Virus record (IMG/VR): IMGVR_UViG_3300025389_001063
Length of the DNA: 64,000 bases
Direction: 5' to 3' (one strand)
From: a virus
Taxonomy: Duplodnaviria; Caudoviricetes
A program made the translations under genes and the position numbers. Each line of letters starts with the position of its first letter. The first letter of the stretch is position 1. The notes under the pieces are model-generated. The model was not told the DNA's origin, made no database searches, and worked only from the letters and a program-made list of their open reading frames with translations. Of the stretch, positions 36,138-42,130 are shown piece by piece.

Positions 36138-36791
36138 ATGACAGACGAAATTATACCTCACGCATGGCCTACTGAATTTTCATGTTTAATTTATGTAGAT
36201 GATCTTATCTTAATAAACAATTACAAATTTGAAGTTGGATTTGATACAGCAAGTTCTAATCCAATTTTACACGACGTAGCATTTGAAAAGGTACAAATGT
36301 TTTTTGACATTCTTATGAATAATAGTATCCTTATTTCTAAGACGTCTTTTAGAGAGAAGAAATTTAATTTTGGCAATAATTATGTTGAATTGCCAGATAT
36401 GCTTAATGATCAGACATTAGGTGCTGTTATATTTTCAAAACTTATATCTTTAGTAGGAGAAGATTTAATAATAAGTTATGTTAAAGTGTCTAGTGAATTA
36501 GGTAGAAATATACGTTTTACTATTGACGATAATTCTCCCGAATTACATATTCTTCTTCCTAATAAAGAAGATTGGTGGGAAAATGATGAAATTAAAAATC
36601 AACCATGGTGGATGAGACCAGATACTGCAACATATGATGAAGTATTATCAGGAGAAGACATTTATAAGGGAGAATTTGATTGGAACGAACACTTTGGTGA
36701 AGATTTAGAAAGAGCAAAGAATTTAGATATTAAAAAAACTAAGTTTGAAATTATACATGGCGGAAAAGATGAAATTAAACCAAATAAGTGA
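36138..36791 (+). CDS. Hypothetical protein
   Basis: 217-aa ORF. No family recognised. Confidence 0.75.
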   Translation: MTDEIIPHAWPTEFSCLIYVDDLILINNYKFEVGFDTASSNPILHDVAFEKVQMFFDILMNNSILISKTSFREKKFNFGNNYVELPDMLNDQTLGAVIFSKLISLVGEDLIISYVKVSSELGRNIRFTIDDNSPELHILLPNKEDWWENDEIKNQPWWMRPDTATYDEVLSGEDIYKGEFDWNEHFGEDLERAKNLDIKKTKFEIIHGGKDEIKPNK

Positions 36792-37296
36792 GCCAATATT
36801 TACAAGTCAAGATCTTATACAAGAAATATATCATGGAAATTTAAAAAAATTAAGTCTATCTAAAGTAGACGAACACGATCTTGATTATATGTCATATATA
36901 GAATTTGTAAATAATAATAAATTAAGGGACTGGCCTTGTCCAGATGCTTATTTAGGAGAAAATAGAACTCAAAAAGAGTATGATTCTTTATTGCAATCAC
37001 AATGGTTTATGCCTGAGAAATATAAAAACTTTGATATTGAAGAATATGTTCTATCTTTGTGTGAGAATAAAATACAAACAGATAGAATAAATTTAGAACT
37101 AAAATTATTTAAAAAATACAACATGATTCCACTATTAAGATTCCTTAAATATCTGGTTGAAAAAATGAGGGAAGATAAAATAGTATGGGGAGTTGGAAGA
37201 GGTTCTAGTGTTGCTAGTTATTGTCTCTATCTTTTAGGAGTTCACAAAATAGATTCGATTAAATACAACCTAGATATTAAAGAATTCTTAAAATAG
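36769..37296 (+). CDS. Stand-alone fragment of DNA polymerase III alpha (DnaE-like)
   Basis: RINLELKLF..YNMIPLLRFLKYLV..IVWGVGRGSSVASYCLYLLGVHKIDSIKYNL..EFLK matches the DnaE GRGS region. Confidence 0.75.
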   Translation: MKLNQISEPIFTSQDLIQEIYHGNLKKLSLSKVDEHDLDYMSYIEFVNNNKLRDWPCPDAYLGENRTQKEYDSLLQSQWFMPEKYKNFDIEEYVLSLCENKIQTDRINLELKLFKKYNMIPLLRFLKYLVEKMREDKIVWGVGRGSSVASYCLYLLGVHKIDSIKYNLDIKEFLK

Positions 37297-37306
37297 GAGA
37301 TTTACA

Positions 37307-37606
37307 GTGGTTAGAAAAACATATAGAAGTCTACAAGGAAAAATAGTAGACATGGAATTACTTGCTCAGAAAAACGAATTAACTCCAGCAATTGGAAATG
37401 TTCGCGTTAATGCCAGAGGTGATGAGTTAGGCCCTGGTGGAAAAATTATACGTAAAAGAGAGGATATCATAGCAGAATACTATGAGAATAATCCTAATGC
37501 TGTTAAAGATGAGATGTATGTAAAACCAAGAAATAAAGATACTGAGTTAGAAACTCCACCTAAAGAGATTGAATCTACTAATAAAACTAGAGAAAAAAAG
37601 AACTAA
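37307..37606 (+). CDS. Hypothetical protein
   Basis: AGGAG RBS, GTG start; ...VRVNARGDELGPGGKII... Confidence 0.7.
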   Translation: MVRKTYRSLQGKIVDMELLAQKNELTPAIGNVRVNARGDELGPGGKIIRKREDIIAEYYENNPNAVKDEMYVKPRNKDTELETPPKEIESTNKTREKKN

Positions 37607-37615
37607 TTTACAAAA

Positions 37616-39115
37616 ATGCATCATGCATTAATATTTAACGTACATATATTTCACCGTCGTGTGCCCGGTGCTTACAGGATTGCAACCTTCTTAAGAGAAG
37701 AAGGTTGGGATGTTGAAGTTATTGATTGGGCTAACGAGTGGCCTGGAGAAGAAATAAAAGAATTATGTAGATCAAGAATTACAAAAGATACTGTTTTTTG
37801 TGGATTTAGTTGCTTTTTTGGCTATTGGCCCGATCATATGGAAGAACTATCACAATGGATTAAAAAAACATACCCAGATGTAAAATTAATTCTTGGTGGT
37901 TCAAGTACTCCAAGAATGAAATCAACTTCTATAGACTATTTTATTCACGGTTATGGTGAAAAAGCATTATTAGAACTAATATCAAGTATCATAGGAAATA
38001 CCCCTGGAAAAGGAATTAAATTTGATAAATCTTTTGGAAGAAAAAAAGTAATTAGAGCAATAGACGATTATCCTTCTTTCCCTATGAAAAAATTAATGAT
38101 AAAATATGAAAAACGAGATTTCATAGATCATAAAGAATGGCTCGGAATTGAATTTAGTCGAGGTTGTAAATTTAAATGTCTCTATTGTAATTTTCCTGTA
38201 TTAGGAGTCAAAGGAGATTATACTAGAGATGCTGACGATTTTTATTATCAGATGAGAGATGCTTATGATCGTTGGGGAGTTACTGGATATGTTTGTGCAG
38301 ACGAAACATTTAACGATTCCACCGAAAAACTTATTAAATTTGCCGATGCTGCTGAAAAACTTCCATTTGATCCATGGTTTAGTGGATTTATAAGAGCCGA
38401 TTTATTAGTTTCAAGACCACAAGACCAAGAACACCTTGCAAGATTGGGATTCTTAGGACACTTTTATGGTATTGAAACTATGAATTATCAGACTGCTAAA
38501 GTAATTGGTAAAGGTATGCATCCAGATAAATTATTATCGGGATTATTAGAAGCAAAAAAGTACTTTCTTAATAATGGGCAAAAAAGATATAGAGGAGAAA
38601 TTGCATTAGTATTAGGCTTACCACATGAAACTGAAGAAACTATACAAAAGTCTTTAAAATGGATTTCTGATAATTGGCAAGACGAATCACATAAAATTTG
38701 GCCTTTAGAAATACCCACTGACATTAAAGAAGATGTATTATCTGGATTGAGTTTAAATTATGAAAAATATGGATATAGAAAGTCTTCGAAAAGAATAAAA
38801 AAAGAAATTAATCTTCCTCGCGAAGTTACACATGTCTCTAAAAATATGAACTGGGAAAACGACGATTTAAGTTTAATACGTTGTAAAGAAATTATCGACA
38901 ACTGGTTTAATCATTCTATAAAAATGAAATATAATTTTCGACTTACTCCTTGGGAATTAGATTTGTATCTCAGTCACGGAAAAAATATAGACAATGTTTT
39001 AAACTTGACATTGCAAGAAATATATCCTAAAATATTAGAAAAATCATGGGAAATACATAATTCTAGAGTTAAAAAATATATTAAGAAAAAACTTAATGTG
39101 AAAGGTAAAAAATGA
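37616..39115 (+). CDS. B12-binding domain radical SAM protein
   Basis: EFSRGCKFKCLYC (CxxxCxxC). N-terminal RIAT.LR..GWDVEV and LILGG segments resemble a cobalamin-binding domain. DETF, GIET and GLPHET also present. Confidence 0.8.
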   Translation: MHHALIFNVHIFHRRVPGAYRIATFLREEGWDVEVIDWANEWPGEEIKELCRSRITKDTVFCGFSCFFGYWPDHMEELSQWIKKTYPDVKLILGGSSTPRMKSTSIDYFIHGYGEKALLELISSIIGNTPGKGIKFDKSFGRKKVIRAIDDYPSFPMKKLMIKYEKRDFIDHKEWLGIEFSRGCKFKCLYCNFPVLGVKGDYTRDADDFYYQMRDAYDRWGVTGYVCADETFNDSTEKLIKFADAAEKLPFDPWFSGFIRADLLVSRPQDQEHLARLGFLGHFYGIETMNYQTAKVIGKGMHPDKLLSGLLEAKKYFLNNGQKRYRGEIALVLGLPHETEETIQKSLKWISDNWQDESHKIWPLEIPTDIKEDVLSGLSLNYEKYGYRKSSKRIKKEINLPREVTHVSKNMNWENDDLSLIRCKEIIDNWFNHSIKMKYNFRLTPWELDLYLSHGKNIDNVLNLTLQEIYPKILEKSWEIHNSRVKKYIKKKLNVKGKK

Positions 39116-39441
39116 AAATTAGACCAATTCTTGATCATGTAATTGTGGAAGATATGGAATTCGGTGAGCAACGAACTGCTAGCGGAATTATTATTGTTGA
39201 CGATGATGGGAAACAACATGGTATTAAACCTCGTTGGGGTAAAGTTTATGCTGTTGGACCTAAACAAGAAGATGTTAAGCCGGGCGATTGGATCCTTATA
39301 GAACATGGTCGTTGGACTAGAGGATTTAATTTTACAAACGACGATGGCTCTATTTTTACTTTGCGTAGAGTGGACACTGATGCTATTATAATGTCAAGTG
39401 ATAGAAAACCCACTGACACTTATACAGCAGGTGAAATATGA
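39112..39441 (+). CDS. groES: Co-chaperonin GroES-like protein
   Basis: MKIRPILDHVIV...RTASGIII...GKVYAVGP...VKPGDWIL. Confidence 0.85.
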   Translation: MKIRPILDHVIVEDMEFGEQRTASGIIIVDDDGKQHGIKPRWGKVYAVGPKQEDVKPGDWILIEHGRWTRGFNFTNDDGSIFTLRRVDTDAIIMSSDRKPTDTYTAGEI

Positions 39442-39872
39442 GCAATATTGATCTAAACAAGTATAGAGAATTTGTAGAAGCAGTAACAAGTAAAGAAAGT
39501 AAAGATCTAACTTCATTTATGAATAGGTTAGATGACATCGACGCAAATTATATCGGTGATGGTGTTCATGGTCCCGACATAAACGTTCCACTAATGCTAA
39601 CAGCCGCAATTGGTATGGCTGCTGAGTGTGGAGAATTTTGTGAACTCCCAAAGAAAATCATCTTTCAAGGTAAACCTCTCAATGAAGATACACTCTTTCA
39701 TATGAAACGTGAACTTGGAGACATTATGTGGTATTGGGTTAATGCTTGTAATGCTTTAAGACTCGATCCTAATGAAGTTATTGCTGAAAATGTTCGCAAA
39801 CTTGAAGCAAGATATCCAGGCGGACACTTCGATGCTTTCTATAGTGAGAACCGTAAGGAAGGCGATCTCTAA
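39438..39872 (+). CDS. MazG-like nucleotide pyrophosphohydrolase
   Basis: GMAAECGEFCELPKK..KRELGDIMWY..NVRKLEARYP. Confidence 0.85.
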   Translation: MSNIDLNKYREFVEAVTSKESKDLTSFMNRLDDIDANYIGDGVHGPDINVPLMLTAAIGMAAECGEFCELPKKIIFQGKPLNEDTLFHMKRELGDIMWYWVNACNALRLDPNEVIAENVRKLEARYPGGHFDAFYSENRKEGDL

Positions 39873-40031: not shown

Positions 40032-40303
40032 AGTGGCTCGATAAATGGTTTGCTAAAAAATGTCGTCAGGCTTGGAACGAAGAACCATCGCCAAGCATAA
40101 TAAAAGTAAATGAAATTAGCAACGGACCTTCTTCTGATGGTATGAACATTAAAGTATGGGGTGCTACTGGCGGACATATTGTTGAATTCCGTAAGTATGA
40201 TCATACAACAGATCGCAACGATAATAGAATGTATATTATTCCAGCAGATAAGGATTTTAGCGAAAGTCTAACTAAAATTATTTCTATGGAGATGCTACGT
40301 TGA
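40028..40303 (+). CDS. Hypothetical protein
   Basis: 91-aa ORF overlapping both neighbours by 4 nt. Confidence 0.65.
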   Translation: MKWLDKWFAKKCRQAWNEEPSPSIIKVNEISNGPSSDGMNIKVWGATGGHIVEFRKYDHTTDRNDNRMYIIPADKDFSESLTKIISMEMLR

Positions 40304-41229
40304 AAGATCTCTGGGTAGAAAAGTATAGACCAAAAGAGATTAAAGACTATGTGTTTCGTGATGAAAACCAAAAAGCACAGGTAGAATCTTGGGTTAAGGA
40401 AGGTACTATTCCTCACTTATTGCTAAGTGGATCACCAGGTATTGGTAAAACAACACTTGCTAAAATGTTAATTCATGCTATTGACGTTAATGACTTTGAC
40501 GTATTAGTTGCTAATGGTTCTAAAGAGGGTAGAAAAGTAGAGTGGATTGACAAACTTATATCTTTTTGCCAAACTATTCCCTTTGGACCATACAAAGTTG
40601 TACTAATCGATGAGGCAGATTATATGAATCCTCATAGTACACAGCCAGCACTTCGCAATCTTATGGAAGAATATCATTCTACTGTAAGATTTATCTTAAC
40701 TTGTAACTATCCACACAAAATTATTCCAGCATTACACTCACGTTGTCAGGGATTTCATGTTGAAACTGTAGATAAAGACGAGTTTACAGCGAGAGTAGCA
40801 ACAATTCTTGTTAGTGAGAATATCGATTTAGATCTCGATACACTTGATACATTTGTTAAGGCAACATATCCAGATATGAGGAAATGTATTAATCTTGTTC
40901 AAATGAATTCATCTAGCGGTAAACTTGTGGAACCAGATAAAAATGATAAAAATGCTGCTGATTGGCATTTGAATATGGTTCAATTGTTTAAGGCTGGAAA
41001 AATTAGTGAAGCAAGAAAACTTGTTTGTAAAAATGCTCAGCCAGATGAAATGGAAGATATCTATCGTTGGTTGTATGATAATTTAGATATTATCAGTGAG
41101 GATGAATCTGTACAAGATAAGGCAATCTTACACATTAAACAGGGTCTTGTGGATCATACTCTAGTTGCTGATCCTGAAATCAATTTAGCAGCGACGTTAA
41201 TACGAATTGCTAATTTAGTAGAGAAGTAA
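40300..41229 (+). CDS. Sliding-clamp loader AAA+ subunit (RFC small/gp44-like)
   Basis: LWVEKYRP, GSPGIGKTT, VLIDEADYM, RFILTCNY, SRC. Confidence 0.92.
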   Translation: MKDLWVEKYRPKEIKDYVFRDENQKAQVESWVKEGTIPHLLLSGSPGIGKTTLAKMLIHAIDVNDFDVLVANGSKEGRKVEWIDKLISFCQTIPFGPYKVVLIDEADYMNPHSTQPALRNLMEEYHSTVRFILTCNYPHKIIPALHSRCQGFHVETVDKDEFTARVATILVSENIDLDLDTLDTFVKATYPDMRKCINLVQMNSSSGKLVEPDKNDKNAADWHLNMVQLFKAGKISEARKLVCKNAQPDEMEDIYRWLYDNLDIISEDESVQDKAILHIKQGLVDHTLVADPEINLAATLIRIANLVEK

Positions 41230-41246: not shown

Positions 41247-41984
41247 TTAATCTCCATAAATGTCTAATATCTCCTTAACCGCAGGATGTCTCTCAATATC
41301 CTTTTGACCAAAATTGACTATGTCAACATATTTTAGGTTCTCTTTGCTCTTGAGTAGTCTGATAAATTCGATCAAACCGTTGTCCTCAATGCGGTCAGCC
41401 TGCTTCAAATCGCCAGTTACTACCATTCTACTATTATCGCCTATGCGAGTTAGTAGCATTTTCATCTGGTTAGGTGTAGCATTCTGCATTTCGTCTGCTA
41501 TGATAAAAGCGTTCTTAAATGTTCTCCCTCTCATATAGGCTAAAGGACTTACTTCAATAACACCCTCTACGAGCATGTTTTGTATTTCCTTTGCGTAATA
41601 GTATTCCGCGAACACATCAAATATCGGGCGTGTCCAAGGTTCCATTTTCTTATTAAGATCCCCGGGTAAAAATCCGTGCTGTTCGTCAACACTTACTGCT
41701 GGGCGTGTTACAATGATCTTATCGATCTGCTTCTCTTTGAGCAATTTTATGGCTGTTTGAGTCGCTAGTAAAGTTTTGCCGGTTCCGGCAGGCCCAACTG
41801 CAAATAATACACTATTGTCTGGATTTTGTAGTTTAAGGAAATAAAGTTCCTGTGATCTATTGCGGGGTACTATTCGTACTTGTTTTTTCTTTTCTGGGAT
41901 ATATTCTTGTAAATCTATTACATTATTATTATTTCTATTATGATGTTGATTTTGTGCTTTTTTCTGTGCTCTTTGTCTGGACAA
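41247..41984 (-). CDS. phoH: PhoH-like ATPase
   Basis: GPAGTGKT, TRPAV, GFLPGDL..KM.PW, PLAYMRGRTF, DEMQN, KMLLTRIG, GDLKQAD, RHP.V. AGGAG RBS favours a TTG start at 41984 (track start 42050). Confidence 0.93.
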   Translation of the reverse strand: MSRQRAQKKAQNQHHNRNNNNVIDLQEYIPEKKKQVRIVPRNRSQELYFLKLQNPDNSVLFAVGPAGTGKTLLATQTAIKLLKEKQIDKIIVTRPAVSVDEQHGFLPGDLNKKMEPWTRPIFDVFAEYYYAKEIQNMLVEGVIEVSPLAYMRGRTFKNAFIIADEMQNATPNQMKMLLTRIGDNSRMVVTGDLKQADRIEDNGLIEFIRLLKSKENLKYVDIVNFGQKDIERHPAVKEILDIYGD

Positions 41985-42130
41985 ATGCAATGCTCCTTCA
42001 AATTGCTTTGTAGGACTACATATCCAAACCAGGACATGCGTCCCACACAATTATTTAAGTCCTACAAGAAAATCATAAGTGGATATATTAACTTTTGAAG
42101 CGATAAATAACTAGTACAAGGGCCTATAAA

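Follow-up and report, generated by a model that had tools for sequence, protein, structure and literature searches.

The locus and its short polymerase gene

A 64,000-nt stretch of viral DNA from IMG/VR record IMGVR_UViG_3300025389_001063 (Duplodnaviria; Caudoviricetes), hereafter the window, contains a short open reading frame (ORF) related to DnaE, the alpha subunit of DNA polymerase III (Pol III). The ORF lies in a string of genes that includes a GroES homologue and a clamp loader, and very probably encodes the N-terminal subunit of a two-gene minimal split Pol III alpha belonging to the group 2.2 jumbo phages (RaK2/PA5oct/GAP32-like, T4-related). We call this protein the N-half, and the separately encoded protein found in its relatives the C-half. 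The window is AT-rich, at 30–44% GC, and belongs to a record of 107,488 bp. CheckV scores this record as 28% complete, which implies a full genome of about 380 kb.

The N-half is a complete short gene whose product stops ahead of the catalytic part of the polymerase. Among 5.8 billion proteins searched, at least 7,768 clusters are homologous to it at E <= 0.001, and the best 120 of these are nearly all 171–182 residues long (one has 160). Because of these lengths we prefer the ATG of the 175-residue frame as the start over the TTG at 36745 to which the longest frame reaches back (183 residues). From the preferred start, the frame shares 23 nt with the end of the ORF before it. At its other end the frame reads ...IVWGVGRGSSVASYCLYLLGVHKIDSIKYNLDIKEFLK-TAG, giving a protein with the C-terminus ...VWGVGRGSSVASYCLYLLGVHKIDSIKYNLDIKEFLK-TAG. 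Pfam reported PF07733 (DNA_pol3_alpha) alone for this ORF, and no PHP domain. The match (E 5.2e-11; 43.1 bits against a cut-off of 23.9) aligns residues 109–182 of the 183-residue form with profile positions 21–94 of 260, so it ends ahead of the profile's DxD part. Among phage families, phrog_11127, a PHROG of short phage proteins with 171 positions, matches the N-half end to end (E 2.6e-42), and phrog_405, which represents full-length phage DnaE, matches it at positions 365–429 of 1190 only. The chain with the Gly-Ser motif stops at the equivalent of E. coli residue 393 and contains none of the three catalytic carboxylates (D401, D403 and D555 in E. coli); no DxD follows downstream of the ORF in any frame. 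Pfam scans of the N-half and two C-halves found no intein or Hint family at E <= 1. A first-pass annotation, made by a model from the sequence alone, had thus correctly described a DnaE fragment of about 175 residues that ends (...EFLK) before the catalytic aspartates, with a clamp loader nearby and without intein motifs.

The conserved residues of the N-half include its nucleotide-binding motif. Among 44 homologues sharing 38–77% identity, 21 alignment columns are invariant, including W140, G141, G143-R144-G145-S146-S147, S150, L153, L155, H159, Y166, E172 and F173. The GRGSS run is also invariant in a six-phage alignment, and corresponds to hG[GS], the Gly-Ser nucleotide-binding motif of Pol-beta-like nucleotidyltransferases. 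Some homologues sit on contigs as long as 351–363 kb, and a protein identical to the window's N-half (P0001) occurs on a contig of 351,300 bp. By tblastn against GenBank phages, the gene is present in RaK2-, 121Q-, GAP32-, CBB-, PA5oct-, XacN1- and RsoM2USA-like jumbo phages.

Structural comparison identifies residues 79–175 as the first half of a Pol-beta-like palm of the C-family type. Searching PDB chains with the N-half, by profile or by single sequence, retrieved no DnaE, so that structural comparison was required. The AlphaFold2 model has a mean predicted local distance difference test score (pLDDT) of 82. When it was searched against 48,161 PDB representatives, the top seven rows were C-family polymerases, all at Z >= 5, and the next row stood at Z 3.1. 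VIA-align placed model residues 77/79–175 on E. coli alpha 277–393 (Z 8.1, root-mean-square deviation 2.5 Å, 92 residues aligned) and on M. tuberculosis DnaE1 307–413 (Z 8.6, 2.5 Å, 90 aligned); the same segment superposes on Taq alpha 296–455. The final 35 residues, which include the strand IVWGVG and the Gly-Ser loop, have a pLDDT of about 60 against block means of 79–93 elsewhere. Such low values would fit a segment that becomes ordered only against the sheet of a partner.

The first 78 residues form a phage-specific alpha/beta domain. In the same set of PDB representatives this domain had no structural relative, the sole row that covered it reaching Z 2.4, and no PHP-like match. It is weakly conserved between phage clades. 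It stands where cellular DnaE has its PHP domain.

A separate catalytic half in relatives

In relatives, the catalytic residues that the N-half lacks are encoded by a second gene. We searched five complete genomes of cultured relatives (PA5oct, GAP32, Hallingskeid, RsoM2USA and XacN1) with Pfam and PHROG models. A second short ORF in these genomes matches PF17657 (DnaE finger) together with phrog_405 positions 579–693 and 776–808, and has a PHROG of its own, phrog_11778 (E 7e-60 and 5.6e-79). The full-length DnaE model phrog_405 matched nothing in the relatives except the N-half and C-half genes. Weak PF07733 matches in GAP32 and Hallingskeid (E about 0.01, with 2–4 internal stops) were considered as further DnaE pieces and taken as noise.

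The C-half retains the catalytic and finger motifs of the C family. The proteins of the five cultured relatives have 188–216 residues, start with M...(T)DIDID and share the invariant residues D7, D9, D11, K68 and D70 (in GYxKxDxL), R137-P138 and K140 (IRPGK), and H170 and Y174 (FKKxHAxxYA). Across 25 mostly uncultured sequences, D5, D7, D70, R137, P138, K140, K167, H170 and Y174 are invariant. The C-half profile is colinear with M. tuberculosis DnaE1 through PDIDIDFDDRR (414–424), GLLKMDFLG...ALYRPG (568–663) and YAFNKSHAAGY (774–787). We take these motifs to be the two metal-binding aspartates, the third carboxylate (D401, D403 and D555 of E. coli Pol III alpha) and the finger motifs.

The modelled C-half resembles C-family polymerases throughout its length, in reduced form. 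The model of P0122, from a complete marine genome (G001), has a pLDDT of 90.5; its residues 1–190 superpose on E. coli alpha 398–780 (Z 9.2), on Taq alpha 459–837 (Z 9.8) and also on PolC. All 14 top rows of its structural search were C-family polymerases, and other folds reached Z 4.2 at most. Between the DxD strand and the third aspartate lie about 57 residues, compared with about 150 in E. coli alpha, and nothing in the C-half is equivalent to E. coli alpha beyond about residue 780. The C-half family comprises at least 7,983 clusters. The Alishewanella phages Slicko01 and Slickus01 (OQ508956.1 and OQ508957.1), whose genomes of about 141 kb are well under jumbo size, also gave a match resembling the C-half, at 39% identity over 72% of the query.

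The two halves meet at one point of the DnaE fold. The N-half ends at residue 393 of E. coli alpha, 455 of Taq alpha and 413 of M. tuberculosis DnaE1; the C-half starts at 398, 459 and 414–417, respectively. On these superposed models the halves abut exactly, with the cut placed in the loop just before the strand that bears D401 and D403. Across all 10 genomes compared, neither the break point nor the N-half stop shifts.

Both halves travel together in complete genomes. They are present in all five cultured genomes, in the marine genome G001 (328 kb, 100% complete), where they lie at 9.8 kb (N-half) and 240.6 kb (C-half), and in six further large records (G014–G017, G026 and G027). Counts per GenBank phage genus for N-half and C-half agree: 34 and 34 in Escherichia, 8 and 8 in Salmonella, 8 and 8 in Erwinia, 4 and 4 in Xanthomonas, and 4 and 4 in Yersinia. 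The genes lie about 100–230 kb apart in marine relatives and 29–43 kb apart in enterobacterial and Pseudomonas phages, as against just 4.2 kb in RsoM2USA. The N-half lies in the GroES/clamp-loader/MazG string, and in the cultured relatives the C-half adjoins a primase gene. Pairwise identities of the two halves correlate (Pearson r = 0.90, Spearman 0.57; 45 non-independent pairs), which shows co-inheritance with the phage lineage only and is no sign of interaction.

A search of longer proteins found no fusion of the N-half to the C-half, and is weak evidence that none exists. It returned P0121 alone, a metagenomic protein of 666 residues on a single 5.6-kb contig, in which an N-half (residues 6–176, 42% identical to the window's, ending EFLE) is joined in frame to a ribonucleotide-reductase barrel (PF02867). 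P0121 is either a rare real fusion or an artefact of gene calling or assembly.

Genomes that encode the split enzyme also encode a complete polymerase of another family. Every one of 10 relatives with both halves, five cultured and five uncultured, has a complete family B polymerase. The record that contains the window has one as well, a frame of 890 residues outside the window (G000:C1:25.7-27 kb). The PHP domain PF02811 was found in none of the same 10 relatives and nowhere in this record; the search detected it in 14 of 14 control genomes. The record thus carries the host-genome traits of group 2.2, namely a family B polymerase, an RFC-like clamp loader and the gene order of PA5oct, GAP32 and Hallingskeid.

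Gene neighbourhood

The N-half gene sits in a gene string that cultured jumbo phages share. In PA5oct, GAP32, Hallingskeid, RsoM2USA and XacN1 the N-half is followed by a small ORF (about 100–125 residues), a GroES-like gene, one or two small genes and a clamp loader, and the window shows the same string (Table 1). The clamp loader of the window matches PF00004 (AAA, E 7e-16), PF13177 (DNA_pol3_delta2, E 2e-11) and Gp44_lid (E 1.5e-4), and holds the same position as in Hallingskeid, GAP32 and XacN1. Around the N-half gene, promoters and terminators were no more frequent than expected by chance, and no T4-type late promoter was found.

Table 1. Features at the N-half locus, in window coordinates
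Feature	Position	Strand	Remarks
Protein of 1,335 residues	31055-35062	+	YHYH domain (PF14240, E 5.6e-28) and He_PIG Ig-like domain
N-half of split minimal Pol III alpha (very probable)	36769..37296	+	175 residues; ATG at 36769; phrog_11127
Phage-specific N-terminal alpha/beta domain, residues 1-78	36769..37002	+	AlphaFold2 block-mean pLDDT 79-93 over residues 1-80
First half of Pol-beta-like palm, residues 79-175	37003..37296	+	Ends just ahead of the DxD strand
Gly-Ser (hG[GS]) nucleotide-binding motif, G143-R144-G145-S146-S147	37195..37209	+	Invariant in 44 homologues
Small ORF, 99 residues, phrog_14844	37307-37606	+	Directly 3' of the N-half, different frame
B12-binding radical-SAM enzyme, 499 residues	37616-39115	+	PF02310 and PF04055; no PHROG match
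GroES/Cpn10	39112-39441		
MazG	39438-39872		
RFC/gp44-like clamp-loader large subunit	40300-41229	+	Co-directional with the gene string of the N-half
PhoH	41247-42050	-	

The small ORF next to the N-half keeps its place across phages and is no polymerase by sequence. A phrog_14844 ORF adjoins the N-half likewise in PA5oct, GAP32, Hallingskeid and XacN1, and this fixed place suggests a linked role. Its N-terminus is conserved (S.RG..[VI]D[MF][ED].L..KNE...A.GN..VNARGD..G.GG.II) and is followed by a tail rich in K and E; Pfam and PHROG searches gave it no polymerase match. Since the segment S.RG..[VI]D[MF][ED].L resembles the R..MPDIDxDF of DnaE, we considered this ORF as the source of the missing aspartates. 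We rejected it because it has no polymerase match and because a partner with DIDID, the third aspartate and the finger motifs exists elsewhere in the genomes of relatives. In RsoM2USA, an unannotated gap of 190 nt follows the N-half (L005:4429-4618), and the annotated ORF after it, which aligns poorly with phrog_14844 at 16% identity, is no homologue of that family.

Other neighbours vary in their presence. PA5oct, GAP32 and Hallingskeid have no gene at the position that the radical-SAM gene occupies in the window, between the small ORF and GroES, and the gene looks like an insertion into the otherwise conserved string. PA5oct has a comparable set of genes (MazG, chaperonin and PhoH) around its N-half. 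Upstream, the 1,335-residue protein of the window holds the position of the 'virion structural protein' of GAP32 and Hallingskeid.

Interpretation and alternatives

From the homology, the junction and the co-occurrence described above, we infer that the two proteins assemble into one enzyme. The N-half would supply the first half of the palm, comprising the helices ahead of the sheet, the strand IVWGVG, the Gly-Ser loop and the helices up to ...EFLK, and its Gly-Ser loop would hold the triphosphate of the incoming nucleotide. The second protein, of about 190–215 residues and encoded tens to hundreds of kb away, would begin at the DIDID strand with two metal-binding aspartates and add FK[LI]D, with the third aspartate, as well as fingers in reduced form (IRPxK, FKKSHAxxYA). 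The halves would associate non-covalently into one active site with about 290 core residues, a core predicted to be without PHP domain, clamp-binding motif, HhH and OB domain and almost without a thumb. Given the phage's own complete family B replicase, the most likely role of the mini-enzyme would be that of an auxiliary polymerase that fills gaps, takes part in repair or carries out some specialised step of synthesis. The first-pass annotation had proposed a replicase encoded in separate pieces and had suggested a search of the full genome for PHP and palm/finger pieces. The split C-family polymerase survives from this proposal, since the second gene of relatives starts at DIDID, and the role of replicase does not, given the complete family B polymerase. 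The palm/finger piece likewise exists as a separate gene in relatives and is not in this 107-kb record; a complementary PHP piece turned up neither here nor in the relatives.

Several points weigh against this account of a two-gene polymerase. Single-protein, profile and Pfam searches did not find a C-half in the 107-kb record, and the partner of this phage is assigned by analogy with relatives whose N-halves are 37–69% identical to it. Three records of 55–67% completeness (G002, G013 and G018) have one half only, as do all small fragments; incompleteness could account for the three without proving that it does, and such records are uninformative. Processive DNA synthesis is doubtful because the core lacks a thumb, the HhH that binds double-stranded DNA and clamp-binding elements, and the literature we searched held no experimental work on any member of the family. 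With the halves about 100–230 kb apart in marine relatives, a fragment of 107 kb would often hold just one of them, and we predict the partner in the roughly 70% of the genome that lies outside the record. The closest relative on a long IMG/VR contig (L156; 60% identity, 129 kb, 36% complete) is likewise without the C-half.

A variant of the two-gene polymerase places regulation at the joining of its parts. In it, the active site would exist only when two separately regulated subunits meet, and the 78-residue domain would recruit the mini-polymerase to a replisome component or a DNA structure, taking the place of the PHP domain of cellular Pol III and of the parts with which that enzyme binds the clamp and tau. 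We regard this variant as speculative and rather improbable; if true, it would describe a polymerase that is turned on by subunit assembly.

Other explanations part company with a two-gene polymerase over what the fragment does, or whether it does anything at all. It is unlikely that the two-piece protein, though a real enzyme, is not a templated DNA polymerase and acts as another kind of nucleotidyltransferase, such as a terminal transferase, an enzyme that tails RNA or DNA ends, a synthase of nucleotide signals or a primer-extension factor. The Pol-beta fold serves many non-polymerase transferases, most of the DNA-handling parts of DnaE are gone here (the short 57-residue link and the missing region past E. 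coli residue 780), and the phage is already equipped with a complete family B polymerase and a clamp loader, to which relatives add a primase. The invariant finger motifs IRPxK and FKKSHAxxYA are nevertheless specific to C-family polymerases, and the full-length superposition of the C-half model on DnaE and PolC only, with no other fold above Z 4.2, again points to a polymerase; Iyer et al. (PMC7824862) take the region of the finger motifs as template-binding.

The first-pass annotation had also raised mimicry of host Pol III, whether dominant-negative or regulatory, and its own doubts about the ORF were that it might be degenerate in relatives or joined to the next ORF by a frameshift. A decoy or regulator that acts alone, mimicking host Pol III alpha and sequestering a replisome partner or poisoning the polymerase, would explain an N-half without any catalytic carboxylate, a record without the partner and an extra N-terminal domain with no assigned function. 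We consider it highly improbable, because relatives pair the gene with a C-half in which all three catalytic carboxylates are intact and which begins exactly where the N-half ends, and because an invariant Gly-Ser motif is needless for a mere mimic. Moreover, what the N-half retains is the buried palm core and not the PHP/epsilon, beta-clamp or tau sites, and the protein is conserved with the phage although the hosts span many phyla. Beyond the truncated appearance of the ORF, nothing speaks for an artefact or relic, be it a frameshift, an assembly error, a pseudogene of full-length DnaE or a piece of an intein- or intron-split gene, and we are almost certain that it is none of these. Rather than degenerating, the gene has homologues of the same length, most of 171–182 residues and some on the very long contigs noted above, with 21 columns unchanged over 44 sequences. 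Read-through or a frameshift into the next ORF was considered and rejected: that ORF is unrelated to polymerases and lies in another frame, and the stop is identical in 10 genomes. A split by an intein is at odds with the Pfam scans and with a C-half that has its own Met directly at DIDID.

The analysis settles the annotation of the ORF as the N-terminal subunit of a split minimal Pol III alpha; neither 'DNA polymerase III alpha subunit' nor truncated gene nor decoy is a fitting label for it. With about 290 conserved residues in two chains, the family is among the smallest predicted C-family polymerase cores, and with nearly 8,000 clusters per half it is very abundant in aquatic metagenomes. 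The defined junction (E. coli alpha 393|398) and pairs of genes from culturable phages (PA5oct EST35_0288 with EST35_0220; GAP32_323 with GAP32_282) ease reconstitution.

Comparison with known systems

The split enzyme is of a known kind, published by Iyer, Anantharaman, Krishnan, Burroughs and Aravind (2021, Viruses 13:63; PMC7824862, section 3.4.1 and Fig. 3b) as the split minimal Pol III alpha of group 2.2 jumbo phages. These authors suggest a possible joint action with the family B enzyme, either in synthesising strands or in repair (PMC7824862). The record agrees with their description in its short stand-alone N-terminal 'NTP-binding' protein and in the lack of PHP or any other Pol III domain. 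It also has the family B polymerase and the RFC-like clamp loader, and relatives encode the C-terminal 'Mg2+- and template-binding' protein at a distance. Cultured members of the group (PA5oct, GAP32, RaK2-like coliphages, XacN1 and RsoM2USA) have orthologues of 34–56% identity with the same neighbours. The copy studied here differs in coming from an uncultured marine relative, in a partner gene placed outside the record and in an apparently inserted radical-SAM gene, none of which changes its kind. Our analysis bears out the published description independently, and to it we add the junction at residue level, the 78-residue domain without structural relative and the sizes of the two families. 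Earlier papers on CBB (PMC5259590) and Atu_ph07 (PMC6102473) mention only a "truncated" alpha subunit, and the PA5oct omics paper makes no statement on either half.

Cellular Pol III alpha (E. coli 2HNH, Taq 2HPI/3E0D, M. tuberculosis DnaE1 5LEW) and PolC share the palm fold with the phage protein. They also share the N-half motif GRGS...Y..G...D..KY.L..E.FL and the partner motifs PDIDIDF, K.DFLG, RPG and KSHA.AY. Unlike the cellular enzymes, which are single chains of about 1,100–1,400 residues, the phage form consists of two chains of about 175 and 190 residues. PHP, HhH and the OB fold, the beta-clamp motif and the tail that binds tau are all missing from it, the fingers are partly lost and the thumb is mostly gone; at its N-terminus it has the 78-residue phage-specific domain instead.

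A C-family catalytic subunit encoded by two distant genes is also found in cyanobacteria such as Synechocystis and Nostoc. There, dnaE-n and dnaE-c carry split-intein halves, and their products are spliced in trans into a full-length alpha subunit. The phage N-half, in contrast, ends with EFLK and a stop codon, and the C-half starts with Met-...DIDID. Since the Pfam scans of the N-half and two C-halves gave no intein or Hint family, any assembly of the phage halves must be non-covalent.

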